DNA from: Spirochaetia bacterium
GTDB taxonomy: Bacteria > Spirochaetota > Spirochaetia > CADAEX01
DNA: 64,000 bases
NCBI GenBank assembly: GCA_045606105.1
Contig: JAZURI010000003.1
Location: 32,001 to 96,000, forward strand
Direction: 5' to 3'
Below the pieces are notes generated by a model, which saw only the letters and a list, made by a program, of their open reading frames with translations, ran no database searches and was not told the DNA's origin. The position numbers and the translations under genes are program-made. Shown one piece after another: positions 20,963 through 33,340 of the stretch (positions are counted from its first letter, which is position 1; the number at the start of each line of letters is the position of its first letter).

Positions 20963-22320
20963 TGTTGGATTTTGATCAGCTTACACCGAAACAGATAGTT
21001 GAAGAACTTGATAAATATATCATCGGCCAGAACAATGCAAAGAAGGTCGTGGCCATGGCACTCAGGAACAGAGTCAGGAGAAAACAGCTCCCGGAGGCAC
21101 TCAGGGAAGAGGTTATTCCAAAGAACATCATCATGATCGGTTCCACAGGTGTAGGAAAGACAGAAATAGCCAGAAGACTTTCAAAGCTTTCAGGAGCCCC
21201 ATTTGTAAAGGTGGAGGCTACTAAATATACCGAGGTAGGCTATGTGGGCCGCGATGTGGAGTCCATAATCAGGGACCTTATGTCAGTGGCTGTAAACATG
21301 GTCAAGTCAGAAATGAGAAATGGTGTGGAGGCCGATGCAAAGGCCCGTGTCGAGGAACTTATCCTTGATGCCCTTCTTCCCGGAACCGGAAACAAGCCGC
21401 TTGCCGAGGGCGAAAACCAGGTTCCTCAGATTCCTGCCGGAGATTCCTCTCTCAGGGAAAAGTTCAGGAACAAGCTCCGGAACAACGAACTTGAGGAGAA
21501 GCAGATAGAGATAGATGTGAATCAGGGCGGATTCCAGCCGATGGAGATTTTTGCAGGAACCGGAATGGATGACATGGGTCTCAATTTCGGAAGCATTACC
21601 GGCATGCTGGGCAATAAGAAAAAGAAACGGAGAACCAGTGTAAAGAATGCCAGGGAGCTTCTTCTCGAAGAGGAAATTGACAAGCTTATCGATACAGACA
21701 AGGTTTCCGAAATTGCAAGAAAGCGTACCCAGGAGATGGGTATCGTGTTTATCGATGAAATTGACAAGGTGGCCGGCAGACAGAGTACCGGCGGTGCCGA
21801 TGTATCCAGGGAAGGGGTCCAGAGAGACATTCTTCCTATCGTGGAGGGCTGCAAGGTCAATACAAAATATGGAATGGTGGATACCACCCATATCCTTTTC
21901 ATTGCAGCAGGTGCTTTCCACATGAGCAAGCCGTCGGACCTTATTCCTGAGCTTCAGGGACGTTTTCCTCTCAGGGTTGAGCTGGGAAGCCTCAAGGCCG
22001 ATGAATTTGAGAAAATACTTACAGTACCGAAAAATGCACTTATCAAGCAGTATGAGGCCCTTATGGATACGGAAGGGGTAAAGCTTGAGTTCACACCGGA
22101 AGCCGTAAGAAGAATTGCGGTTATCTCGGAGGAACTGAATTCCGGTACGGAAAATATCGGGGCAAGAAGACTTCATACCATTATGGAGCTTCTTCTGGAA
22201 GAGGTCTCTTTCTCGGCTCCTGAGCTGAAGGGACAGACCATAACCATAACTCCGCAGTATGTGGACGAAAGACTTCACGGAGTATTGGGAGACCAGGATC
22301 TGGCAAAATATATCCTTTAG
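20962..22320 (+). CDS. hslU: ATP-dependent protease ATPase HslU
   Basis: GSTGVGKTEIARR, GYVGRDVES, FIDEIDK, NIGARRL. Confidence 0.98.
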   Translation: MLDFDQLTPKQIVEELDKYIIGQNNAKKVVAMALRNRVRRKQLPEALREEVIPKNIIMIGSTGVGKTEIARRLSKLSGAPFVKVEATKYTEVGYVGRDVESIIRDLMSVAVNMVKSEMRNGVEADAKARVEELILDALLPGTGNKPLAEGENQVPQIPAGDSSLREKFRNKLRNNELEEKQIEIDVNQGGFQPMEIFAGTGMDDMGLNFGSITGMLGNKKKKRRTSVKNARELLLEEEIDKLIDTDKVSEIARKRTQEMGIVFIDEIDKVAGRQSTGGADVSREGVQRDILPIVEGCKVNTKYGMVDTTHILFIAAGAFHMSKPSDLIPELQGRFPLRVELGSLKADEFEKILTVPKNALIKQYEALMDTEGVKLEFTPEAVRRIAVISEELNSGTENIGARRLHTIMELLLEEVSFSAPELKGQTITITPQYVDERLHGVLGDQDLAKYIL

Positions 22321-22331
22321 GGAGGGGAGAT

Positions 22332-23270
22332 ATGAGAGAGCAGATTTCAAACTTATGGAAAAATCTTAAAAACGGACAGAAAGTTACACTGATAATGATT
22401 TTTGTTGCTGCTTTTGCCGGAATTCTGTTTCTGTGCTCGGCAGGAACCACATCCTTCAAGACACCGCTCTTTACCGCACCTATCGGGGATAAGGATGTTA
22501 TCAGCCGTATTTCAATCCGTCTTGACCGGGCCGGTGTGGAGCATTCCCTCAGGGACGGGATGATTTTTGTAAATGACAAGGAATCTGCCGGAAAGATGGT
22601 AGCTCTTCTGGTAAGGGAAGATCTGGTGCCTAAGGAAGCTTCTCCATGGGATGTTTTCAGGATGGACAGATGGACCACCACCGATTTCGAGCGCAATGTC
22701 AATCTCCGCCGTGCCATTACAGAAGGGCTTGAAAACCATATCGAGTCCCTGGATGACATAGATAAGGCCGGAATTACCCTGGTAATGCCTGAAAAGGAGC
22801 TTTTCTCCGAGGATCAGAAAGAGGTTACCGCCTCCATTATCCTTACAGTCAGACCCGGCTCCGACTTCATCTACAACAGAAAGAAGATCGAAGGAATCAT
22901 AAAGCTGGTAAAGTTTGCGGTGGAAGGGCTTGAAACAGAAAATATCACTATCTGCGATACTGCAGGAAATGTCCTCAGCGACCTGTCGGCACTTCCTGTA
23001 CCGCCTCAGGGTATGCAGATAACCGAACCTGAACAGACCGGGATTATAAAGGAAAGCAATACTCTTTTCTTTATCGGTGAGTTCGGAGTAGGATACAATC
23101 ACATATACATGGCTCTTGGTGCTGCTGCCGTAATTGTCATTGCCGTGTTTGCAGTCAGGGGTATCAGAAAGAAAAAGGATGAAGCTCTTCTTTCAGATGC
23201 AAGGAAAATTGCTTCCGAAAATCCGGAAGAAGTTGCCAGACTTATCAAGATGTGGCTTTCGGAGGGGTAG
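22332..23270 (+). CDS. fliF: Internally deleted MS-ring protein FliF (312 aa; RBM1-RBM2 and C-terminal FliG-binding helix kept)
   Basis: TM1, WTTTDFERNVNLRRAI, TASIIL, AVEGLETENITICD, then TM2 and ENPEEVARLIKMWL; about 250 aa shorter than canonical FliF. Confidence 0.88.
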   Translation: MREQISNLWKNLKNGQKVTLIMIFVAAFAGILFLCSAGTTSFKTPLFTAPIGDKDVISRISIRLDRAGVEHSLRDGMIFVNDKESAGKMVALLVREDLVPKEASPWDVFRMDRWTTTDFERNVNLRRAITEGLENHIESLDDIDKAGITLVMPEKELFSEDQKEVTASIILTVRPGSDFIYNRKKIEGIIKLVKFAVEGLETENITICDTAGNVLSDLSALPVPPQGMQITEPEQTGIIKESNTLFFIGEFGVGYNHIYMALGAAAVIVIAVFAVRGIRKKKDEALLSDARKIASENPEEVARLIKMWLSEG

Positions 23271-23273
23271 AAT

Positions 23274-24242
23274 ATGAAGAAAAAACTTTCCGGAAAAGAG
23301 AAAGCTGCCGTATTCATCATGGCTCTGGGATCTGAGATCTCCTCTTCCGTATGCAGTCATCTCTGCAGTGAAGACCAGGAAATCCTCTCCTATGAAATAG
23401 CAGCCAGAAGAATAACCGGTGCCTGCAGCGTAAAGTCTGTTCTGTCTGAATTCAGGAATCTCATGAAGGCAGGTAACCTTACCGTTATCGGAGGAATCGA
23501 CTATGCCGGTTCAGTTCTTAAAAGGACAATGGGACTTGAAAAAGCAGAAGAAATCATCAGCCGTATTTCCCTGTTCATGCACAGGAAGCCCTTTGATTCC
23601 ATAAGAAAGGTTGCGCCGGATTCGCTTCTTGCCCTTCTGAAAGGGGAACATCCCCAGACCATAGCCGTGGTTCTTGCCAATGTGGAGCCGGAAAAGGCCT
23701 CTTCAATCCTTGCCAGACTGCCTCGTGAAATCCAGTCGGATGTGGCAAAGCGTATTGCCGTATTGGACAGAACCGAACCTGAAACTCTTCTCAGAATTGA
23801 GAAAATCATCGAAAGAAAGCATGCTATGGCTTCTGCTGCCGGAGAATACAGGGGCGGAATAGAAAGCATCATCGAAATACTGAACCATATGGACCGCAGC
23901 TCCGGGGACAATATTATAAGTACCATTCTCAGGGAGGATTCTCTCCTGTCAGCCAGACTCAGGGAAAAGAATCTCAGCTTCGACGATATTGCATTGCTGG
24001 ACAATCCTTCTGTTATCCGGATAATCAGGGAAACCGATCCGGTTGAAATCGAGAAGGCACTCCGTACAGCCGATTACAGGGTACGGGAAAAAATCATGAA
24101 CAATCTCTCCTCCGAGGTTTCCGAAAAGGTAAGAAACAACGAGGGTCGTCCTATTCTGATTGCCGATATCGAGGCTGCACAGAACAGGATAACAGGGCTT
24201 TTGAAAAAGCTTATGGAACAGGGCGAAATTGCTTTTGCATGA
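23274..24242 (+). CDS. fliG: Divergent C-ring protein FliG
   Basis: LSGKEKAA, GGIDYA, EHPQTIA, GGIESI and C-terminal GEI; MFxF motif and torque helix degenerate. Confidence 0.93.
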   Translation: MKKKLSGKEKAAVFIMALGSEISSSVCSHLCSEDQEILSYEIAARRITGACSVKSVLSEFRNLMKAGNLTVIGGIDYAGSVLKRTMGLEKAEEIISRISLFMHRKPFDSIRKVAPDSLLALLKGEHPQTIAVVLANVEPEKASSILARLPREIQSDVAKRIAVLDRTEPETLLRIEKIIERKHAMASAAGEYRGGIESIIEILNHMDRSSGDNIISTILREDSLLSARLREKNLSFDDIALLDNPSVIRIIRETDPVEIEKALRTADYRVREKIMNNLSSEVSEKVRNNEGRPILIADIEAAQNRITGLLKKLMEQGEIAFA

Positions 24243-24253
24243 AGAGGTAACTG

Positions 24254-24904
24254 ATGTCAGATATACTTTTTAAAGCCGTAGATATAGCAGAACTGGAAAA
24301 TGCCAAGGCGCTGGAGAACCGGGAAAATGCCTGTGCCGAGGCAGAAAGCATAAGGGCTCAGGCCCGTGCCGAAGCGGAGCGTATACTGGCCGAGGCTGAA
24401 AAGAATGCCCGTCTTGCCGAAAGGAAAGGGGAACAGAAGGGGCGTGATGCAGGCTTCCGGGAGGGACTTGCAGAGGTTTCCATGGTTGCGGAAAGAATCC
24501 GTTCCGTTCTTGTGAGGCTTACGGAGGAAAAGGACAGGATGCTGGCTTCTGCAGAGGATGAACTTGCCTCCCTGGCTCTTGAAATTGCAGAAAAGATAGT
24601 TAAAAGAAGCTGTGAGGAATACCGGGAAACAGCTGTTGAGAACATAAGGCATGCACTGACAGGCATCGGTGAAAGCTCAGAGGTGACAATCAGGGTCAAT
24701 CTGGAGGATATCGATATATCCCAGACCCATCTCAGGGATTTTCAGTCTGCATGTTCTGATGGCGGAAAAATCAAAATAGTACCGGAGCCGTCGGTGGAAA
24801 GGGGCGGCTGCATAGTCGAGACCGGATCATGCCGTATCGATGCCACAGTCTCATCCCAGCTCAGGGCTGTGGAAAGGATATGGAAAGATGTTCGGGAAGT
24901 ATAG
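24254..24904 (+). CDS. fliH: Export apparatus protein FliH (shortened)
   Basis: GxxxG repeats (GEQKGRDAGFREG), TIRVN, VERGGCIVET..IDAT. Confidence 0.88.
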   Translation: MSDILFKAVDIAELENAKALENRENACAEAESIRAQARAEAERILAEAEKNARLAERKGEQKGRDAGFREGLAEVSMVAERIRSVLVRLTEEKDRMLASAEDELASLALEIAEKIVKRSCEEYRETAVENIRHALTGIGESSEVTIRVNLEDIDISQTHLRDFQSACSDGGKIKIVPEPSVERGGCIVETGSCRIDATVSSQLRAVERIWKDVREV

Positions 24905-25154
24905 GGAAGCCCTTCGGAAAAGGGATACGCTGACCTTTACCGGCAGGATAGTCAAGGTTTCGGAAAACCTGGCCGAAAGCATAGGGCCGGCAGTGGCACT
25001 GGGCGATATCTGCCGCATAATTATTCCATCCACAGGCGAAGGTATCAGGGCCGAGGTAATCGGTCTGGACCGGGAAACAGTCTGCCTCAGGGCAGCCGGC
25101 TCTCTCAAGGGGGTCAGGATCGGCTCTGTAGTGGAAGCGGAAAACAGCTTGTAA
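24888..25154 (+). CDS. fliI: FliI N-terminal fragment only (88 aa, no ATPase domain); mini-protein or pseudogene
   Basis: MFGKYREAL...TGRIVKV...ESIGP..LGDIC...AEVIGL matches the FliI N-terminal beta-barrel; ends TAA TAA; no Walker A seen in the ORF-track translations downstream. Confidence 0.8.
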   Translation: MFGKYREALRKRDTLTFTGRIVKVSENLAESIGPAVALGDICRIIIPSTGEGIRAEVIGLDRETVCLRAAGSLKGVRIGSVVEAENSL

Positions 25155-25199
25155 TAAAATTTCACTTATATATCAGACCGAAAAGTTCGACAATTAAGT

Positions 25200-25604
25200 A
25201 TGGTGCAGTTTTTATATCCCGTACTAAGAGAGCCGGACATTCTCAGGAAATATCCCACAGAAATCGTTGATATGACAAAAATCGGCAATTCAGTGAAGAG
25301 AATCACTGCCGAGGTTATAATCCCTGGAGTAGGCTTTGCCTCCGTATCCCTGAAATTCAACGGTAACAGGTTCACCATGGATATTGCTGTAAACCGCAGC
25401 GGGGTAAAGAAGCTGGTGGAGGAGAGAATCCATGAGCTTGTAAGCAGGTATAAATCCCCCGATTATATCCTTACAGAGCTTTCCGTAAGGCTGGATGAGG
25501 AAAGGCTGTGCACATCCGGTTCCTGTCTCGATATCATGTCTGACAGGTGGCTCAATATCGTTTATCCCGACTCATCATCATGTCATCTGGAAACCTTTGC
25601 CTAA
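25200..25604 (+). CDS. Hypothetical protein resembling a stand-alone FliK C-terminal (T3S4) domain
   Basis: IIPGVGFASVSLKFNGNRFTMDIAVNRSGVKKLVEERIHELVSRY resembles the L.P..LG.V.I...beta-beta-alpha pattern; lies where fliK is expected. Confidence 0.5.
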   Translation: MVQFLYPVLREPDILRKYPTEIVDMTKIGNSVKRITAEVIIPGVGFASVSLKFNGNRFTMDIAVNRSGVKKLVEERIHELVSRYKSPDYILTELSVRLDEERLCTSGSCLDIMSDRWLNIVYPDSSSCHLETFA

Positions 25605-25675
25605 TAATATATTTATATTAAATAATAAAGAAACAGTTTGCAAAATTACGGTATGTTTGCTAAAATATATGCAGT
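25605..25675 (+). promoter_or_regulatory. Sigma70-type promoter inside the fla cluster
   Basis: AT-rich UP tract, TTGCAA (25638-43), 17-nt spacer, TGc-TAAAAT (25661-66), ATG 9 nt later. Confidence 0.7.
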
Positions 25676-26647
25676 ATGCAGGATGGGGCATGGGATTACA
25701 GTTCTTATAAATCTCTGTTGACAGCTTTTTCGGAAGCTTTTGCTCTCCTTGCATCCGTAAAAAACGGTATTTCCATTGAATTTTCAGAACTGAAGCAGAC
25801 AGTTTACAGCCGATATGTAAGGTCTCAGCCAAGCTATACCGCATCACTTCTTCTTGACTGGAACGGAATCGGGATTACGGCAGATGCAGATCCCGGTCTT
25901 TCATTTTACGTGCTGGAGAGACTTCTCGGAGGAAACGGCAGTCCGGGTATAGTGAACAGGCCTCTTTCGGTAATAGAGCAGGCTGTGGTTTCAGATTTTT
26001 TTTCAAGGCTTGCGGAGGGGCTGGGTACTGTTGCCGGCTGGTGCGGTTCAGAAGCTCCGGAATGGAAAAAGCTTTATCCTTCGGTATCGGAGACAGGGCT
26101 TACAGAGGAGGAATCCCCGGTTGTCATCCTGTCTTTCAATGCAGACGGAAAAAAGGATAACCTTAGAATTGTTTTCCCTGCAGCTGCAGGCAGTGCATTA
26201 TGTGCCCTGTTGTCAGAGGCTTTTGCCGAAGATGGCAGTGTAAGGTTTTCTGCAGAGACGGAGGGAGTGGTTCTTTCTGAAACGGAAAGGGCAGATCTGG
26301 GAATCGGCGATGTTATTGCATTGGGTAAACCGGGAAACCTGCTGCAGTTCAGGATCGGAAAGAAGTTATGCTGCAGATGTGAAACCGGTCTGTCAGGGGA
26401 TAAACCTGCGGTACGGACCGTGGATGTCATGCCGGAGCCTGAAAGGGATGGGACTGTAACCGTTCTTTTCGGCCGGGGAAGGATCGGAGTGGCTCAGGCG
26501 GCGGCTCCGGAAAAGGGAATAACAGCCCTGGTGGACAGAAAAAAGGGAGAGCCGGCCGGGCTTCTTGTCTCAGGAAAGGCTGTTGCTCTGTGTGAATTTG
26601 TAATGCTTGAGGATAAGCTGGGAGTGCGTATCATAAAGTTGATTTGA
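25676..26647 (+). CDS. fliM: FliM middle/SpoA domains fused to a FliN-like SpoA domain; no CheY-binding N-terminus
   Basis: LERLLGGNG...RPLSVIE (FliM middle), LGIGDVIAL...GKKLCCRCETG (SpoA1), VTVLFGR...GEPAGLLVSGKAVALCEFVMLEDKLGVRI (FliN SpoA). Confidence 0.8.
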   Translation: MQDGAWDYSSYKSLLTAFSEAFALLASVKNGISIEFSELKQTVYSRYVRSQPSYTASLLLDWNGIGITADADPGLSFYVLERLLGGNGSPGIVNRPLSVIEQAVVSDFFSRLAEGLGTVAGWCGSEAPEWKKLYPSVSETGLTEEESPVVILSFNADGKKDNLRIVFPAAAGSALCALLSEAFAEDGSVRFSAETEGVVLSETERADLGIGDVIALGKPGNLLQFRIGKKLCCRCETGLSGDKPAVRTVDVMPEPERDGTVTVLFGRGRIGVAQAAAPEKGITALVDRKKGEPAGLLVSGKAVALCEFVMLEDKLGVRIIKLI

Positions 26648-26678: not shown

Positions 26679-27173
26679 GTGAAAAACATTCTTTTAACAA
26701 TAATTTTGTCTCTTAATATATTTTCTGCACAGCATGTGTTCTGTGATACATTTTCTGCTGCGGATGAAAGTTCATTATCCATAGGGGGCGGCAGCAGTGC
26801 CGGTGTCCGGGCTGCTTCTCCGGTATTTTCCTCAGGGGACCTTTTCAGGATGATACTGGTTCTGGTGCTGGTTACCGCACTGATCTATGCAGTTTTCCAT
26901 CTCCTCAGGAAATTCCGTTTTTCAGAGAACGGGGGAGACAAGGGGGATATCCGCATTCTTTCCAGCAAGGGACTGGGACCTGGAAAGGCACTCCATGTGG
27001 TTGAGATTGCCGGCCGGTATTTTGTTATCGGTGCTTCCGACAACTCTGTTTCATGTATTACCGAGCTTACGGAGGAAGAGGGAAGGAAAATCGGTACCGG
27101 ACAATCCGTATCAGGCTTCTCCCTTGCGGAAAATCTCCGTAAAATCAAGGCCTGCAGGGAGAGACTGAAATGA
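26679..27173 (+). CDS. fliO: FliO/FliZ export-gate assembly factor
   Basis: TM followed by IRILSSKGLGPGKALHVVEIAGRYFVIGASDNSVSCI; immediately upstream of fliP. Confidence 0.85.
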   Translation: MKNILLTIILSLNIFSAQHVFCDTFSAADESSLSIGGGSSAGVRAASPVFSSGDLFRMILVLVLVTALIYAVFHLLRKFRFSENGGDKGDIRILSSKGLGPGKALHVVEIAGRYFVIGASDNSVSCITELTEEEGRKIGTGQSVSGFSLAENLRKIKACRERLK

Positions 27174-27952
27174 AAAAAGTACTTCTTCTGGTTTTACTTA
27201 TGGGATTATTCCTTTCTGCAGAGCTCTTTGCTTCCGAAAGCAATGCTTCAGGCGGTTTTGCCCTCCCTTCCGTAGAAATAAACATGGGAGAAGGGGCTGT
27301 AAACACCGGTGACAATGAAAAGACTGCCTCCTCCATAAAGCTGCTGCTGCTCCTTTCAGTAATTGCCATAGCCCCTTCGGTGCTGCTTCTCTGCACCTCC
27401 TTCATAAGGATAGCCGTGGTTCTGGATTTCATAAAGCGTTCCCTGTCGCTGCAGCAGACTCCACCCAATCAGATAATCATGGGACTGGCCCTTTTCCTTA
27501 CGGTCTTCATCATGTGGCCTGTCTTTGACGATATTTATCAGAATTCCTTCAAGCCTTTTTCCCAGGGGGAGATAGAGGCTTCCGAAATGTATGGCAGGGC
27601 TGAAAAGCCTCTCAGGATATTCATGTACAACCAGCTCAGGGATAACCCGGAAAACATCAGGCTTTTCATGAATCTCAGCGGTCTTCCGAAGCCGGCAAAC
27701 CTTTCCGAGGTTCCGACCTATGTCCTGGTTCCTGCCTTTGCACTCAACGAACTTACGGTGGCGTTCAGGATCGGTGTCCTTATTTTCATACCGTTCCTGG
27801 TTATAGATATGATAGTGGCATCCATTCTCATGTCCATGGGGATGGTCATGGTACCACCTGTAATGGTGTCTCTTCCGTTCAAGCTGATGGTATTTGTCCT
27901 TGCTGACGGATGGAACCTTATAATTGGCCGGTTGCTCAGCAGCTTTGTCTAG
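27170..27952 (+). CDS. fliP: Export gate protein FliP
   Basis: TSFIRIAVVL, QQTPPNQI, PAFALNELTVAF, LMSMGMVMVPP, LPFKL..DGW. Confidence 0.97.
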   Translation: MKKVLLLVLLMGLFLSAELFASESNASGGFALPSVEINMGEGAVNTGDNEKTASSIKLLLLLSVIAIAPSVLLLCTSFIRIAVVLDFIKRSLSLQQTPPNQIIMGLALFLTVFIMWPVFDDIYQNSFKPFSQGEIEASEMYGRAEKPLRIFMYNQLRDNPENIRLFMNLSGLPKPANLSEVPTYVLVPAFALNELTVAFRIGVLIFIPFLVIDMIVASILMSMGMVMVPPVMVSLPFKLMVFVLADGWNLIIGRLLSSFV

Positions 27953-27960
27953 GAGATAAA

Positions 27961-28230
27961 ATGGAACTCGGTGATGCTGTATACATTTTCAAGACATCCC
28001 TGATTCAGGTACTGCTTGTTGCCTCTCCGGTGCTTCTGGTCAGTCTTCTTGTGGGGCTGATAGTGTCGTTTTTCCAGTCGGCAACCTCAATCCACGAGCA
28101 GACTCTGGTATTTATTCCTAAAATTCTGGCAGTTCTCCTGGTCCTGATACTTCTGGGGGGCTGGATGATTTCTGCCATAGAGCAGTATACGCTGCATATA
28201 TTTGACATGATTCCGGGGATGACTGAATGA
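27961..28230 (+). CDS. fliQ: Export gate protein FliQ
   Basis: VGLIVSFFQSATSIHEQTLVFIPKI; AGGAG SD before ATG 27961. Confidence 0.95.
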   Translation: MELGDAVYIFKTSLIQVLLVASPVLLVSLLVGLIVSFFQSATSIHEQTLVFIPKILAVLLVLILLGGWMISAIEQYTLHIFDMIPGMTE

Positions 28231-28943
28231 ACTGGTGGCTTTTTTTCCTGGCCTTTGCCAGAATATTTGCCTTGATGCAGACTGCACCTCTTCTCTCATC
28301 AAGAAGCGTTCCGCTCCTGGTCCGCATCGCCATGTCCCTTTTTACAGCCTACGGAGTCACACCGGCCCTTACCGGAATTGTCATACCACAGGATCCGGTT
28401 TCATATTATCTCCTGCTGGCAGGAGAGGCCATGCTGGGAGCGGCAATGGGACTCTTCATGCAGATGGCTTATATGGTATTCCTTTCTGCCGGCCGGTTCA
28501 TGGGACTCTGTTTCGGAAATTTTTCGGGGGATGCCGATTCTCCGGTTGCCGGTCTCATGAATTATGCCGCAGTTTTCGTATTTCTGGCCGCATCGGGGCT
28601 CTACAGCCTTTTCTTTATAGGGGTTACCTCCTCCTTCAAGGCTCTTTCGGCCTACGACATTGCAGCCTGCAGGGAGGGAATGGCATTGCTCCTGACAAGG
28701 GGTTTTTCTGCAATGTTTGCCAAGGCACTACTGACAGCACTGCCCGTGATTGCCGTTCCTCTTCTTGTTACATTGATTACCGGGATTCTGAGACACATGG
28801 ATTTCGGCTGGAGTGCGGCCATGGTTACCGGAATCATAATGCTGGCCTTTGTCCTTCCGTTCCTTATGGATAGCTTCGGAAGCTTCATCGACAGCAGCTT
28901 TGACATAGTTTCGGGATGGATTTCATCGGGAGGAAGCCTATGA
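28227..28943 (+). CDS. fliR: Divergent export gate protein FliR
   Basis: FARIFALMQTAPLLSS..VP..VR and GEAMLG motifs; hydrophobic; between fliQ and flhB. Confidence 0.85.
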   Translation: MNWWLFFLAFARIFALMQTAPLLSSRSVPLLVRIAMSLFTAYGVTPALTGIVIPQDPVSYYLLLAGEAMLGAAMGLFMQMAYMVFLSAGRFMGLCFGNFSGDADSPVAGLMNYAAVFVFLAASGLYSLFFIGVTSSFKALSAYDIAACREGMALLLTRGFSAMFAKALLTALPVIAVPLLVTLITGILRHMDFGWSAAMVTGIIMLAFVLPFLMDSFGSFIDSSFDIVSGWISSGGSL

Positions 28944-29632
28944 TTGATGAAATCCGTGAGGTAAAGGCCACTGCCCGAAGGGTGAAAAAGGCTTCTGAAA
29001 GGGGAGATTCACCGAGAAGCAGGGAATTTGCAATGGCTTTTTCACTTCTGGCCGTACTGCTTGTCACCTTGGTTTTCGGAAAATATTTTCTCGGATGCAT
29101 CAGGGAAACCGTTGCTTCCTTTATCGGTTATGCAGTGGAGGGTGAGCTTGACGGAAAGGCTGCAGCCATGGCCTTCGGATGCTTTGTCCGGGTATGTGTT
29201 CCCTATTTTGCGGTGCTGGCTGCCGTGACCTGGATGACAGAGGTCAGTCAGGTGGGCTTTGTATTCGTTACCGGGGAAAAAAGAAAAATGGGAAAAAAGA
29301 CCCCATCCTCCGGATGGATCGGTGGAATTCTTTCCCTGCTCAGGACTGCTGCGGTGACAGCGGTGGTTTTCCTGGCTGTAAAAAGCGATTTCAACCGGCT
29401 TGCCGGTATGACAGATATGATGTTTACCTTTGTATTTGTTTTCAGGGTTCTTCTTTATGTGGGAATCCTTCTGGTGATTTCTGCATCTGCAGATTACTTG
29501 ATTGCCAGGTTCCTTCACAGGGAATCTCTCCGTATGACCAGAAGGGAGCTTTCGGAAGAACAGAGGGATGAAATGGGAGATCCGGCTGTAAAGGCCAGAC
29601 TTGACGAGAGAATGAAACAGCTTCTGAGCTGA
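28940..29632 (+). CDS. flhB: FlhB transmembrane part only (230 aa; stops before the NPTH site)
   Basis: KATARRVKKASERGDSPRSRE, QVGF, LRMTRRELSEEQRDEMGDPAVKAR, then stop. Confidence 0.88.
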   Translation: MIDEIREVKATARRVKKASERGDSPRSREFAMAFSLLAVLLVTLVFGKYFLGCIRETVASFIGYAVEGELDGKAAAMAFGCFVRVCVPYFAVLAAVTWMTEVSQVGFVFVTGEKRKMGKKTPSSGWIGGILSLLRTAAVTAVVFLAVKSDFNRLAGMTDMMFTFVFVFRVLLYVGILLVISASADYLIARFLHRESLRMTRRELSEEQRDEMGDPAVKARLDERMKQLLS

Positions 29633-29646
29633 AAGGGCTTTGATAT

Positions 29647-31668
29647 ATGATGAAAGAGAGAAAAAACAGCAATATTCTGGTGCCGCTGATAGTGCTTGTG
29701 GTGGTAGCGATGATAATAATACCAATGCCGGTACCGCTGCTTGATATCTTTATGGCAGCCAACCTGCTTTTCAGCCTTGCGGTACTGCTGATGGTCATCT
29801 ACACCGGAAAGCCTTCCGATTTTTCGGTTTTCCCGACCATGCTTCTTGTCTCCACCGTATTCGGACTGGGGCTGAATGTATCCTCCACCAGGCTTATCCT
29901 TTCCAAAGGGGCCGAATTTGACGGCAAGCTTATCAGGGCCTTCGGAAACTTTGTCGTAGGTTCATCGGGAAATGAGGGTCTTGTAATCGGTCTGATCATC
30001 TTTGTCATCTTTATCCTTGTCCAGCTGATCGTAATAACCAAGGGTGCCGGAAGAGCTGCCGAGGTTGCTGCCAGGTTCAATCTGGATGCCATGAACCAGC
30101 GGAATCTCTCCATCGATGCCGATGTGGCAGGGGGCCATATTACAGCAGCTGAAGGGGAAATACGGAAAAAGGAGTATCAGCAGGAAACTGATTTCTACAA
30201 GAGCATGGACGGTGCCTCCAAGTTTGTTTCCGGAAATGTAAAGGTGGGAATCGTCATCACATTGGTCAATATCATCGGCGGTATAATCATCGGAATGCTG
30301 CTCAGGAAGGAAAGCTTCGGTCTGGCTGTGGCAAACTATACAGCCCTTACCATCGGAGACGGTCTTGTAACCCAGTTCCCTTCCATTATGATTTCGGTAG
30401 CCACTGCCATCATAGTCACCAGCTCCACCGGTTCCGGCTCGCTGGCAGCCGACTTTGCCGGACAGTTTTCCAAAAGGCCGGAAATATACCGTATCCTTGC
30501 AGTTTTTTCAGTAATAATGGCCCTTCTTCCGGGCTTCAGAAGAGCATGGTACATTTTCATTCCTCTGGGAATCTTTCTTTTCTATCTGGGACACAAACTG
30601 GGACAGTCAGGTTCCGTTCCTGAAAAAGAGGAGAAACCCGAAACAAAGCCGGAAAGTGCCGCCCCTGCCGCAGACATAAGCATTTCCCCAGTGTCAGAGG
30701 TTCATCCTCTCTATCTGGGACTGGGATACGGTCTTTACAGATTTGCATCTGACAGCACCATGTTCGGAAACCGTATAACGGAACTCCGGAAAAAAATAGC
30801 ATCTGAACTGGGATTTGCCATTCCTCCGGTCAGGATAACAGATAACCTTAATCTTAAGCCGGCGGAATACAGTATCAGGATCAGGGATGTGGAGGCAGCC
30901 AGGGCTTCTGTCCGTGCAGACAAGCTTGTGGCCATAGCCGACGGTCCGGTATCGGACAAGGTGCTCCGAAATCTGGGTGAGGAATTCAATGAACCGGTCT
31001 ACGGAAAAAAAGCCTGCTGGATTTCGGCAGAAGAGAGGGAAAATGCCCGGGACAAAGGGTGTATAGTTACAGATATACCGTCTCTCATTATTGTCCATAT
31101 GGAGGAGATAATCAGGAGAAATGCCGCTGACCTCCTTGACCGTCAGACTGTGCAGTCCATGCTGGATGAGCTTTCAAAAAGACATCCTGCCGCAGTAAAG
31201 GAGACCATGAAGCTTCTTACTCTGATAGATATACACAAGGTGCTCAGGAATCTGCTCAAGGAACAGGTTTCCATCCGGGATCTGGGACTGATTCTTGAAA
31301 CTCTCGGCGACAGCGTTTCTGTCTCCGGGGATATCGGATATCTTACGGAAGAGACACGCCGGGGACTCAGACGGCAGATTTCACACAGCTATGCAGATGA
31401 AGGAATGCATCTCCATGTCATTACACTCAGCAGCGAAACAGAGAAAAAGCTTCTGGAAAATCCTTATGATATCAGATTCAACGAAAAGCTTGCAGGAAGG
31501 GTAATGGAGCTGGCAGAGGGAAGAAACGTGGTTCTTATGTGCAGAAAGGAGCTCAGGGCCGGTCTGGGAGCCCTTCTTGCCGGAAAAAAGAGCTTTGTTC
31601 CGGTATTATCGGCAGATGAGAAGGCAGATGACATAATTATTGAATTCCACGGAAAGGTTGATGTATGA
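29647..31668 (+). CDS. flhA: Export apparatus protein FlhA
   Basis: FSVFPTMLL, LNVSSTRLIL, VITKGAGRAAEVAARFNLDAM, MDGASKFV, TIGDGLV, LLKEQVSIRDL. Confidence 0.96.
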   Translation: MMKERKNSNILVPLIVLVVVAMIIIPMPVPLLDIFMAANLLFSLAVLLMVIYTGKPSDFSVFPTMLLVSTVFGLGLNVSSTRLILSKGAEFDGKLIRAFGNFVVGSSGNEGLVIGLIIFVIFILVQLIVITKGAGRAAEVAARFNLDAMNQRNLSIDADVAGGHITAAEGEIRKKEYQQETDFYKSMDGASKFVSGNVKVGIVITLVNIIGGIIIGMLLRKESFGLAVANYTALTIGDGLVTQFPSIMISVATAIIVTSSTGSGSLAADFAGQFSKRPEIYRILAVFSVIMALLPGFRRAWYIFIPLGIFLFYLGHKLGQSGSVPEKEEKPETKPESAAPAADISISPVSEVHPLYLGLGYGLYRFASDSTMFGNRITELRKKIASELGFAIPPVRITDNLNLKPAEYSIRIRDVEAARASVRADKLVAIADGPVSDKVLRNLGEEFNEPVYGKKACWISAEERENARDKGCIVTDIPSLIIVHMEEIIRRNAADLLDRQTVQSMLDELSKRHPAAVKETMKLLTLIDIHKVLRNLLKEQVSIRDLGLILETLGDSVSVSGDIGYLTEETRRGLRRQISHSYADEGMHLHVITLSSETEKKLLENPYDIRFNEKLAGRVMELAEGRNVVLMCRKELRAGLGALLAGKKSFVPVLSADEKADDIIIEFHGKVDV

Positions 31669-32531
31669 TCGGTGATTATTCCTTAGTTGTCAGAGCCCTT
31701 GAAAGGATAGAAAAAAAACTGGATTCCGGTATCGGTACAACAGCTGTGCCCGATAATATTCTCTATACCGAGGAGCTTCTCCGTTCAAACGATTTTTCCC
31801 ATTCCTTTATCAGGAAAATATCGGAGACCCTGATGAGGGAGGTTTCCTACGAGAATCTTCTGAGCAGAGGCTATGTGCTGAAGAGAATCAGGGATCTTAT
31901 TCTTGATAATATAAATATTTATGATATTACAGAGCCTTATGTTCCGGAAATTACGGTGTTGCTGGGCCCAACCGGAGTCGGAAAGACCACCACGGTAGCC
32001 AAGCTTGCCGCAGAGAACATAAAGAAAGGGCGGCGTACAGGAATCATCACCACCGATTATTTCAAGGCAGGAGCTGCCGAGCAGATAGAGACCCTGGCCA
32101 AGATCATGAAGATTCCTTATGTTTCAATCCGTAATTCCGAGGATATGGAAAGACAGATTGACGAATGGAGCAGTGCCATGGATTCCATCCTGGTGGACTC
32201 CGTAGGAAAAAGCCCCAGGGATGAAATGCTTTCGTCGGGAGATGTGATGGCAGGCTGCGGACAGGCGGCTCACAGGTTCCTGGTGGTAAGTGCCTCCACA
32301 AAAGGGTCCGACCTGGTAAGGATCATGAAGCAGTTCGATATTTTCGGATACGATTCCGTTATATGCACGAAGCTGGACGAGACCTACCATATCGGCAACC
32401 TTATTTCCGCACTTGCGGAGGCAGACAGAAGCATAGCCTACATAACTACGGGGCAGAAGATACATGTAAATATAGAGAAGGCCTCAAAGGAAAGGCTTCT
32501 CGGTTATCTGGAAGGATTTGCTGCAGTATGA
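31665..32531 (+). CDS. flhF: SRP-type GTPase FlhF (N-terminal B domain largely absent)
   Basis: GPTGVGKTTTVAKLAA, DSVGKSPRD, TKLDET, YITTGQ; follows flhA. Confidence 0.88.
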   Translation: MIGDYSLVVRALERIEKKLDSGIGTTAVPDNILYTEELLRSNDFSHSFIRKISETLMREVSYENLLSRGYVLKRIRDLILDNINIYDITEPYVPEITVLLGPTGVGKTTTVAKLAAENIKKGRRTGIITTDYFKAGAAEQIETLAKIMKIPYVSIRNSEDMERQIDEWSSAMDSILVDSVGKSPRDEMLSSGDVMAGCGQAAHRFLVVSASTKGSDLVRIMKQFDIFGYDSVICTKLDETYHIGNLISALAEADRSIAYITTGQKIHVNIEKASKERLLGYLEGFAAV

Positions 32532-33340
32532 TTGAAGAGGATGTTATGGATAAAGCAGATTTTTTGACTGATGAAGAAAGAATGGAGCAGGAGCTCTGGA
32601 AAAAATATAAGGAAACCGAGAATCCGGAACTGGAAAACCAGATAATCAAGAAATATCTTTACCTGGTCAAATATGTGGCAGGTAAGATTCCGCTGAATCC
32701 GGGTTCAGGGGTGGAGTTTGAAGATTACTGCGGCTTCGGAGTACTGGGTCTTCTGGATGCAGTCAGGAAATTTGACCTGGGAAAAAATACTAAATTCAAG
32801 ACCTATGCCATTATCAAGATCAGGGGAGCCATAATCGATGAAATGAGAAAGCTGGATTTTTTCCCAAGATCGGTTCACCAGACTGCCAAGGCTATCGAGG
32901 ACAATATCAGAATTCTGGAGGAGAAGCTGGAAAGAGTTCCGAGTGATGAGGAAATTGCGGAGCACATGAATATTTCTGTCCAGGAATTCAGACGGAAGCT
33001 TCAGAGAGTCAGCTGTACCACCATTATCTCCCTTAATGAGCAGTGGGCTTCCGGTGACAACGACAAGCTATCCCTGCTTGATACCCTTGAATCCCCGGCC
33101 GGTCTTAATCCCGAAACCATAGCAGAACGGAAGGAGATCATCAGGGTGGTTTCCGATGCCATCATGACACTTCCTGAAAAGGAGAGACAGGTACTCTTCC
33201 TGTATTACAAGGAGGAGCTTACTTTGAAGGAAATCGGCAATACCCTTGATGTTACCGAATCGAGAATATCGCAGCTTCATGCCAAGGCTGTACTGACCCT
33301 CAGAACCAGGCTTTCAAATTCAAGAAGGGGAATCTGTTGA
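32528..33340 (+). CDS. fliA: FliA/WhiG (sigma-28) RNA polymerase sigma factor
   Basis: GLLDAVRKFD, FKTYAIIKIRGAIIDEMR, YYKEELTLKEIG..LDVTESRISQLH; ATGA overlap with flhF. Confidence 0.95.
   Translation: MIEEDVMDKADFLTDEERMEQELWKKYKETENPELENQIIKKYLYLVKYVAGKIPLNPGSGVEFEDYCGFGVLGLLDAVRKFDLGKNTKFKTYAIIKIRGAIIDEMRKLDFFPRSVHQTAKAIEDNIRILEEKLERVPSDEEIAEHMNISVQEFRRKLQRVSCTTIISLNEQWASGDNDKLSLLDTLESPAGLNPETIAERKEIIRVVSDAIMTLPEKERQVLFLYYKEELTLKEIGNTLDVTESRISQLHAKAVLTLRTRLSNSRRGIC

Follow-up and report, generated by a model that had tools for sequence, protein, structure and literature searches.

The window analyzed here, that is, the whole stretch of 64,000 nucleotides from contig JAZURI010000003.1 of a Spirochaetia bacterium, holds a flagellar operon in which fliF encodes an unusually short form of the ring protein FliF: two ring-building motifs (RBM1 and RBM2), both membrane helices and the C-terminal tail are present, while RBM3 and the beta-collar are absent. 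Its parts, all on the + strand, are the following (TM, transmembrane; aa, amino acids; AF2, AlphaFold2; dN/dS, ratio of nonsynonymous to synonymous substitution rates):

22332 to 23270, +: fliF, short form, 312 aa, with TM1, RBM1, RBM2, linker, TM2 and putative FliG-binding tail; no RBM3 or beta-collar
22371 to 22442, +: TM1, residues 14-37; helix in the AF2 model, hydrophobic stretch
22491 to 22616, +: RBM1, residues 54-95; alpha-beta-beta-alpha unit in the AF2 model, also matched by Foldseek; dN/dS 0.07-0.10
22683 to 22958, +: RBM2, residues 118-209; RBM fold in the AF2 model and by Foldseek; the most constrained part
22995 to 23093, +: disordered linker, residues 222-254 (33 aa), rich in Pro, Ala and Glu; predicted local distance difference test (pLDDT) below 50; it occupies the former place of RBM3 and the collar
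23094 to 23165, +: TM2, residues 255-278; helix in the AF2 model
23166 to 23267, +: cytoplasmic tail with the putative FliG-binding helix, residues 279-312; its counterpart in a solved FliF of 569 aa is residues 533-566

The short FliF and its operon

An earlier reading of the letters alone (the sequence-only reading) had described this protein as a FliF that lost RBM3 and the collar by a clean in-frame deletion and came to resemble SctJ of the injectisomes. The two strings that it quoted were located in the 312-aa open reading frame (ORF), ENITICDTAGNVLSD at residues 203-217 and ENPEEVARLIKMWL at residues 295-308; and, as it had expected of a Pfam scan, the protein matched PF01514 (YscJ_FliF) alone, over residues 56-216, with an E value of 6.4e-37 and 127.6 bits against a cut-off of 24.4. 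PF08345 (YscJ_FliF_C), the model for RBM3 and the collar, had no match at E ≤ 1 across the whole genome to which the window belongs (G000), a draft of 1,464,972 bases in 11 contigs that is 99.03% complete.

The top match among solved structures was a 569-aa flagellar M-ring protein (E 6.5e-65), aligned in two pieces: residues 7-222 of the query correspond to residues 14-230 of the chain and residues 275-310 to residues 533-566, and about 300 residues of the reference stand as about 52 (linker and TM2) in the short protein. Both this alignment and that of the genus, described below, show the deletion to be in frame, as it was proposed, RBM1-RBM2 and the C-terminal helix being both kept. Regarding the AF2 model, it was built from a 60-sequence alignment and has a mean pLDDT of 70.8; TM1 (14-37) and the second TM helix (from 255) are both predictions of this model, in which a long helix at 255-296 comprises TM2 with its cytoplasmic continuation and a terminal helix follows at 298-311. 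The sequence-only reading had allowed that an RBM3 might still lie within the linker: none was detected there; 33 disordered residues leave too little space for such a motif, and PF08345 found no match.

Searched against the PDB with Foldseek, the model retrieved RBM1-RBM2 chains of FliF and the SctJ family (EscJ 1yj7; PrgK 5tcp and 4oyc; MxiJ 8axn), the latter at E values of 1e-7 to 8e-4. The proposed convergence on SctJ stands, then, for the RBM1-RBM2 fold and the domain layout, and it does not extend further: the N-terminal TM helix is kept, by sequence the protein is an orthologue of FliF, and there is no invariant lipobox Cys, since the only candidate, Cys 35 near the end of TM1, is absent in the species G005 and in a clade of six species of the same genus. 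As for the C-terminal tail, it carries a conserved sequence motif that binds FliG in motile bacteria and that, judged by its sequence, would do so here; a complex prediction of FliG residues 1-110 with FliF residues 262-312 scored 0.26 (mark 0.32), a value that counts neither for nor against binding.

Upstream of fliF the gene order is topA, xerC, hslV, hslU and then fliF directly; in G011, a relative of the same family that has flagella, hslU and fliF are separated by flgB, flgC and fliE. Downstream, fliG follows at once (hslU-fliF-fliG-fliH), as in a flagellar operon, and the remaining genes are these:

23274 to 24242, +: fliG, 322 aa, with N, M and C domains (Pfam); EHPQT kept, torque-helix charges not kept
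24254 to 24904, +: fliH, 216 aa (Pfam); dN/dS 0.09-0.12
24840 to 25154, +: fliI remnant, N-terminal beta-barrel domain only; 104-aa frame, or 88 aa from an in-frame ATG at 24888; ATPase domain deleted
25200 to 25604, +: FliK-C-like ORF, 134 aa; weak Pfam Flg_hook match below the cut-off; ORF kept in 8 genomes
25676 to 26647, +: fliM-fliN-type switch protein, 323 aa; two tandem SpoA (FliMN_C) domains behind a FliM-like front
26679 to 27173, +: fliO (Pfam)
27170 to 27952, +: fliP (Pfam); dN/dS 0.06-0.09
27910 to 28230, +: fliQ (profile match)
28227 to 28943, +: fliR (profile match)
28916 to 29632, +: flhB, membrane domain only, 238 aa; Pfam profile positions 4-240 of 335, autocleavage domain missing
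29647 to 31668, +: flhA, full length, 673 aa (profile match)
31665 to 32531, +: flhF, 288 aa; the N-terminal ~90 residues of the G011 protein have no counterpart
32363 to 33340, +: fliA (sigma-28), 325-aa frame as listed, overlapping flhF by ~170 nucleotides (nt)

Because relatives have a FliA of 265 aa, the true start of fliA is probably internal to this frame. Searching the whole window genome by tblastn with the proteins of G011 revealed no flgB, flgC, fliE, fliJ, flgD, flgE, motA, motB, fliL or flhG, no FliI beyond the N-terminal piece, and no separate fliN was found; the loss of flgB, flgC and fliE that the sequence-only reading had claimed is borne out by this search and by the Flg_bb_rod counts given below. 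The ATPase complex is incomplete: there is FliH, an 88-104-aa N-terminal piece of FliI, and no FliJ. The fliI remnant ends in a double stop; in G005 it is truncated at the same place, with the frame still open, so that in both genomes a stand-alone FliI N-terminal domain lies beside an intact FliH.

Some minor features of the operon should be noted. The FliK-C-like ORF is kept in 8 genomes (118-134 aa) though the C-terminal domain of FlhB, the usual partner of FliK, is deleted. The layout of the switch protein at 25676-26647, with two SpoA domains and no separate fliN, resembles that of the injectisome SctQ or of FliY. Frames of the MotA_ExbB family, of 203-227 aa, occur in G000 (~205 aa), G005 and the species G001; by its size, the one of G000 is more likely ExbB/TolQ.

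The reduced flagellar set across the genus

Eight other species of the genus (G001-G008) formed the comparison set; they are Spirochaetia from animal-gut metagenomes, with genomes of 1.2-1.8 Mb. Their FliF frames measure 322-475 aa in all eight, against 570-592 aa in the 25 other Spirochaetia genomes matched. In seven of them (G002-G008) FliF has 311-314 aa and is colinear with the window protein from end to end (57-76% identity); the short form thus occurs in eight of the nine species, the window genome included. The ninth, G001, has a FliF of 470 aa in which part of PF08345 is kept and the collar insertion is absent. The cytoplasmic segment that precedes the terminal helix is shortened in all three lineages of the genus; taken together, these sequences suggest that FliF was trimmed stepwise.

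Regarding the gene content, neither Flg_bb_rod (PF00460, rod and hook) nor Flagellin_N (PF00669) was found in any of the nine genomes, and all nine have one FlhA (FHIPEP) and one FliP, intact; this agrees with the sequence-only reading, which had proposed a ring that holds the gate and no rod. Neither the chemoreceptor domain MCPsignal nor the secretin PF00263 was found in the five genomes searched; SctD and needle genes are absent from the flagellar loci read, no genome-wide search having been made for either.

As in the window, the genes of G005 form one operon, truncated FliI included. In the clade of six species the flagellar genes are split over two loci, and the same 15-gene set is kept. 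Locus A reads hslU-fliF-fliG-fliH-fliI, with a full-length FliI (453-455 aa) in five of the six species, that of G008 being cut by the contig end; in G002, whose locus A is the only one read at that place, fliI is followed by a 122-aa FliJ-like coiled-coil ORF (Pfam FliJ E 9e-4, below the cut-off). Locus B comprises fliK-C-like, fliM/N, fliO, fliP, fliQ, fliR, a truncated flhB, flhA, flhF and fliA. The export apparatus has all of FliP, FliQ, FliR, FlhA and FlhB, the last as a membrane domain only: in eight of the nine genomes FlhB ends after this domain, past the GDPxVK motif. G001 keeps the FlhB C-domain, with GKDG in place of the relative's NPTH; it keeps FliF and the gate, has no FliM/N and no FliI, and encodes a mini-FliG of 221 aa (L031 6365-7027, +) in which shortened N, M and C domains are all recognizable. 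The FliF tail of G001, paired with this mini-FliG, has its conserved Trp replaced (…LIKSMLAEE). Finally, flhF is retained in all nine genomes for which the locus was read. The retained set is about that shared by flagella and injectisomes (homologues of SctJ, L, N, O, P, Q, R, S, T, U and V), with FliG, FliO, FlhF and FliA in addition; the genes common to both systems are those listed in PMC3459982.

FliG of the window genome keeps the EHPQT motif. For the C-terminal helix, Thermotoga, Vibrio and G011 have MSKRAA..(K/R)D(E/D), the window genome has LSSEVSEKVRNN, and the six species have LSPELSKLLSQPD, from which two residues are deleted. The charged residues concerned reportedly contact the stator (Lloyd and Blair), so that losing them is in keeping with a genome in which neither motA nor motB was found. 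Two other FliG-like sequences were observed: a stand-alone FliG middle-domain (FliG_M) gene, which sits between ftsK and locus B in the six-species clade (in G002 a 103-aa protein, L060 5182-5493, +, Pfam E 3.3e-10), and a weak FliG-like tblastn match in the window genome (C11:112888-113349).

As for the authenticity of the sequence, at least half of the words of positions 22300-25700 are present in 19 public sequencing runs of 10 studies, recorded as animal gut or faeces metagenomes, sheep included, with one metatranscriptome library among them; runs with a small share of these words were left aside for the habitat. The junction was examined in contigs, not raw reads, of four runs (X1, X4, X9 and X14), and no indel or joint was found in any of them. 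In X1, positions 22000-25800 lie on one gap-free contig of 9244 nt that differs by 25 substitutions; this run may be the source sample itself, which makes its independent support weak, and X9, X4 and X14 come from other studies. In X9, the RNA library, a contig of 1240 nt covers 22479-23718 and crosses both the junction at 22995-23093 and the border of fliF and fliG. No assembly collapse, the event that the sequence-only reading had named as fatal to it, is seen at this level: independent contigs bridge the junction without indels. The X9 contigs cover 30 of 30 bins, which is compatible with transcription of the operon and does not prove it, because RNA libraries can contain DNA.

As for the distribution of the form, the FliF query matched 127 proteins in a collection of 5.8 billion; among these, the best 48 clusters have 293-315 aa, 97-100% coverage, 52-99% identity and PF01514 alone, and the sources that are named are FliF of Spirochaetia or Spirochaetales metagenome-assembled genomes (MAGs). 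Among 1.84 billion representative proteins, 5184 matched at E ≤ 0.001, and within the best 150 of these the only end-to-end match is the representative of the short FliF family itself. Twelve other candidates (P0051, P0054, P0056, P0082, P0087, P0105, P0122, P0124, P0131, P0144, P0148 and P0214) were rejected as frameshifted, truncated or duplicated fragments with no TM2 or tail. In Spirochaetia, FliF was found in 329 of the 401 genomes sampled; outside the genus, six frames below 500 aa occur among the best 150 of 332 matches, of which those of G187, G220 and G234 are cut by contig ends and those of G269 and G388 lie, by their coordinates, at contig starts.

The sixth, G286, is a real short FliF, from a complete 4.6-Mb genome of another Spirochaetia family: it has 450-455 aa and keeps the RBM3 core, TM2 and the tail, with no collar. 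Its operon is hslV-hslU-fliF-fliO-fliP-fliQ-fliR, flhA being next (L067, G286:C1:2968500-2973500; L071); there is no Flg_bb_rod or FliMN_C match in the genome, and no fliG in the locus read. From its gene content this looks like an independent flagellar relic made of FliF and the gate. Because G001 and G286 both keep FliF and the gate while C-ring and ATPase vary by lineage, being kept in some only, FliF and the gate appear as the common denominator.

Selection was estimated by the method of Nei and Gojobori on codon alignments, for the six species (15 pairs, dS ~0.6-1.0) and for G000 against G005, where dS (~0.7-2.7) is near or beyond saturation. The dN/dS values are listed as six species; G000-G005:

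fliF: 0.073; 0.157
fliG: 0.081; 0.159
fliH: 0.094; 0.12
fliI: 0.075; 0.29 (remnant in G000 and G005)
fliK-C-like: 0.175; 0.27
fliM/N: 0.143; 0.31
fliP: 0.056; 0.09
flhB: 0.173; 0.21
flhA: 0.076; 0.21
hslU (control): 0.039; 0.045
FliF, RBM1: 0.072; 0.10
FliF, RBM2: 0.017; 0.055
FliF, linker: 0.22; 0.26
FliF, TM2: 0.16; 0.29
FliF, C-terminal tail: 0.024; 0.19

All other retained flagellar genes with a computable value fall within 0.06-0.31 (fliA gave none for G000-G005). Within FliF, constraint is strongest in RBM2 and, for the six species, also in the tail; the linker, with 14% identity between clades, is among the least constrained parts together with TM2. The short fliF is not a dying gene: it is under purifying selection, as the sequence-only reading had supposed from the two ends that were kept, and the same form is found in eight of nine species and in 48 protein clusters.

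A probable rod-less export gate and its alternatives

The architecture, the gene content, its conservation, purifying selection, independent assemblies and one RNA library are what is established here, and the account that brings them together is probably that of a gut spirochaete which lost its flagella and in which a stripped flagellar core survives as an export or signaling machine. In its specific form, which we consider fairly likely, the short FliF makes an SctJ-like ring that scaffolds a rod-less export apparatus opening into the periplasm. In MS-ring structures, the S-ring is made by RBM3, which, with the beta-collar, sleeves the rod; RBM2 surrounds the FliPQR-FlhB gate, and the C-terminal helix of FliF docks FliG. 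With the rod gone, RBM3 and the collar would have become dispensable and been deleted. Assembly of the remaining protein would rely on RBM2, together with RBM1, and would enclose FliPQR-FlhB in the way that SctJ encloses SctRST, and the linker, as a flexible tether, would lead the chain back to the membrane; the terminal helix would then hold FliG and, through FliG, both the FliM/N protein and FliH, as well as FliI and FliJ in lineages that have them. Such a ring would scaffold both the gate (FliOPQR, the membrane domain of FlhB, and FlhA) and a non-rotating cytoplasmic platform. Because there is no FliE or rod above the gate, exported proteins would enter the periplasm, which is the normal building site of spirochaete flagella. 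That a ring forms, that it binds FliG, that it exports, and what it would export, we infer; with this caveat on ring and FliG binding, the overall interpretation of the sequence-only reading is supported, and every part of it that could be checked held.

With canonical FliF the short protein shares orthologous sequence, the neighbors hslU and fliG, TM1, RBM1, RBM2, TM2 and the putatively FliG-binding C-terminal helix; it differs in having neither RBM3, by which the FliF family is partly defined, and the beta-collar (together ~220 aa) nor most of the cytoplasmic linker (~45 aa), and in coming from genomes with no rod, hook or filament gene found. With SctJ (EscJ, PrgK, MxiJ) it shares a periplasmic part made of RBM1-RBM2 only, a C-terminal TM helix and the company of homologues of SctN, L, O, Q, R, S, T, U and V. 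However, SctJ has a lipoprotein signal, whereas the short FliF has an N-terminal TM helix and keeps the putative FliG-binding tail and a FliG gene; SctJ is farther from it in sequence than FliF is, and has a secretin companion, none of which was found in the five genomes searched. Buchnera aphidicola, non-motile and with a reduced genome, reportedly carries flagellar basal bodies that were proposed to be a protein transporter (Maezawa et al. 2006); it keeps the rod, ring and hook genes and a full-length FliF. In the genus studied here, the searches found no axial part, and FliF too is cut down.

Among published proteins the chlamydial FliF comes closest, as described in Bergeron 2016 (PMC4768692): it has ~330 aa, belongs to a non-flagellated host and has two RBM-like units rather than three, and in these respects it is like the short FliF of the window. 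According to the same text, the chlamydial protein is without RBM1, keeps RBM2 next to an RBM-like unit of unassigned identity and carries a fused FliG-M-like domain, in Chlamydiaceae that have a full injectisome beside a few flagellar genes; the spirochaete protein, by contrast, keeps RBM1 and RBM2, a separate FliG gene and the whole flagellar export core. As for the origin of injectisomes, Abby and Rocha 2012 (PMC3459982) propose a beginning by loss of flagellum-specific genes with the shared type III secretion system (T3SS) genes retained, and state a monophyletic group of non-flagellar T3SSs derived from a single exaptation. Their inferred ancestor and the "Myxo" loci of Myxococcales resemble the present case in the shared T3SS genes kept, in the lack of a secretin and in a conservation over long divergence that argues for function, whereas here the event would be an independent one in Spirochaetia and the genes are flagellar orthologues in a flagellar operon context. 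In a survey of flagellar loss (PMC12199754), which used complete genomes and not MAGs, the sets of Spirochaetota are nearly complete. A full-text search, with subscription journals and supplements outside its reach, found no published RBM3-less FliF or rod-less flagellar core in Spirochaetia.

An RBM3-less FliF that selection keeps alongside the gate, FliG and a C-ring protein amounts to a natural experiment: can RBM1-RBM2 by themselves make a ring around FliPQR, and of what stoichiometry? It bears on the origin of the symmetry mismatch of the MS ring and on what RBM3 is for. It would also be a living, non-pathogen example of a step proposed for the origin of injectisomes, one that arose independently and that can be compared with the real injectisome lineage. 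If export is true, the gate of the G000 lineage, without ATPase domain, FliJ and FlhB C-domain, would be a smaller working core than any studied.

Several observations weigh against an exporting ring. In Salmonella, a construct of RBM1-RBM2 is monomeric and oligomerizes only with RBM3, according to PMC8786727; the short FliF can thus not be assumed to assemble by itself, and the gate may have to serve it as a template. G000 and G005 are without the ATPase domain of FliI and without FliJ, which could mean relaxed constraint; ATPase-independent export is reported in Salmonella (PMC4230889). The dN/dS of the flagellar genes in G000/G005 is about twice that of the six species, which could again be relaxed constraint, and in the trees the FlhA branches are far longer than those of hslU in all three lineages of the genus, as could result from either a changed function or a relaxed constraint. 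The expression evidence consists of the contigs of one RNA library, which may bear DNA, and the export substrates are so far hypothetical. Finally, FlhB is without its entire C-terminal domain in eight of the nine genomes, and we know of no export-competent system without it.

An alternative is a core that is functional and does not secrete: FliF, FliG, FliM/N and FlhF could serve as a polar or division landmark or scaffold, or FlhA as an ion channel, the gate being needed for assembly only. FlhF, which in polar flagellates positions the flagellum at the pole, is retained throughout; locus B of the six species follows ftsK and the stand-alone FliG_M gene behind a sigma-28-like promoter; and a FlhB without C-domain and, in the G000 lineage, a missing ATPase fit a machine that no longer exports. 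However, constraint is among the strongest on FliP, FliQ, FliR and FlhA (dN/dS 0.056-0.09 in the six species), where FliH, FliI and a FliJ-like gene are intact as well, and G001, with its mini-FliG only, and G286 keep FliF and the gate without C-ring or ATPase, pointing to the gate as the indispensable part; a non-secretory role is thus unlikely.

Somewhat less probable still is that the locus is a slowly decaying relic, the short FliF being one step of erosion with no present function. The reduction is indeed progressive and specific to lineages (470-aa FliF, mini-FliG and neither FliM/N nor FliI in G001; no FliI catalytic domain or FliJ in G000/G005; both kept in the six species), FlhA evolves at an accelerated rate, dN/dS is higher in G000-G005 than in the six species, and other Spirochaetia families have no FliF at all (f13, 0 of 38 genomes). 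Decay of this kind is hard to reconcile with frames that are open in all nine genomes and in 48 protein clusters, with dN/dS of 0.06-0.31 at dS of 0.6-2.7 (near or beyond saturation for G000-G005), with a constraint that is strongest in the parts expected from function, RBM2 and the putative FliG-binding tail, and with a 15-gene set that survived the split of the operon into two loci. That the short FliF is an artifact of assembly or gene calling (a collapse, chimera or frameshift), which the 11-contig draft and the several frameshifted or contig-cut "short FliFs" of the databases might bring to mind, can be set aside, given the same architecture in eight separate genome assemblies, contigs of different studies that bridge the junction without indels or joints, and a TM2 and tail kept in frame.

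FlgM, FliA and sigma-28 patterns

A possible substrate for the rod-less gate is the anti-sigma factor FlgM. In Bacillus subtilis, sigma-D has an autolysin branch, and FlgM leaves through the flagellar export apparatus. In the genus, fliA is retained in all nine genomes and an intact flgM in eight of them (seven of the eight other species), and flgM is also present in G286. The flgM of the window genome is intact (94 aa, Pfam E 5e-11; C1:32572-32751, L102 1411-1695) and adjoins rsmI, a synteny shared with the flagellated relative G011; its orthologues in the genus have 50-69% identity and a common N-terminus, MTIN. In families without FliF, no FlgM was found (f7, 0/6 genomes; f13, 0/38; f19, 0/5; f20, 0/7; f25, 0/1), and in one family all 37 of 37 genomes have FliF and 0 of 37 have FlgM, so FlgM is dispensable for a flagellum. 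FlgM is kept where the gate stays without a flagellum, and kin dependence leaves two lineages at most for this association.

As for the targets of FliA, the pattern TAAA-N14-16-GCCGATA, which we take to be the sigma-28 promoter consensus, had 68 matches in the nine genomes of the genus against 20 for a reversed control, a modest enrichment; a scan of G000 alone had given 18 matches and was uninformative before the genus-wide comparison. The shorter TAAA-N14-16-CCGATA has no match within the window, and the flagellar operon has sigma-70-like consensus matches only, which are not evidence. Conserved instances were counted at 8-80 nt upstream of start codons, and precede the following genes:

small signal-peptide protein resembling an outer membrane protein (OMP-like), 148-153 aa: six species; the G000 orthologue has the variant TCCGATA
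GerMN-domain membrane protein: both clades
SPOR-domain protein: G000; matching pattern in G005, where the downstream gene is unread
LysM-M23 peptidase (peptidoglycan hydrolase): two of the six species and G001
ftsK, head of locus B: pattern and gene both read in L080 and L083, from two of the six species, with a match at the corresponding place in two more
glmS: read in three of the six species, with a match at the corresponding place in three more
nrdR: read in G006; same pattern in G002

Three of these, the OMP-like, GerMN and LysM-M23 genes, have the pattern at orthologous genes across clades; the loci are L107 183-626 (-), L108 548-1339 (+) and L109 675-1328 (+) in G000 and L091, L099, L101, L086, L083 and L100 in relatives. 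By the predicted nature of its members, the set looks like an envelope and division regulon, comparable with the autolysin branch of sigma-D. A tentative scheme, which we hold to be possible and no better than that, is that the rod-less gate exports FlgM to the periplasm and thereby frees FliA for this regulon. The points that weigh against it are that the promoter consensus is an assumed one, its enrichment modest and the kin not independent; that a FlgM-FliA pair could work without any export; and that FlhB is without the domain that governs late-substrate export in model organisms.

Taken jointly with the scheme for FlgM, the genus, and independently G286, might be regarded as a second conversion of a flagellum into a type III system unrelated to motility, apart from that of the injectisome, a view that we advance with considerable reserve. 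The moves of such a conversion would be injectisome-like: FliF would have been cut down to an SctJ-like ring protein of two RBMs, FliM would have merged with FliN to give an SctQ-like protein that has two SpoA domains, and all axial parts would have been discarded. If the FlgM scheme were true, it would account for the partial flagellar gene sets that persist in non-motile bacteria.

Two recurrent matches of the sigma-28 pattern were set apart, being probably no promoters. One lies inside a coding frame that continues upstream; the other falls in a 25-nt element that has no Rfam match and no convincing downstream gene. The element, TAAACATTC(A/T)GC(A/G)GGAGCGCCGATA, is conserved together with the sequence that follows it in G000 and in the six species, and is located at L088 ~1501 (G000 C2:289780) and, in relatives, in L072, L082 and L089.

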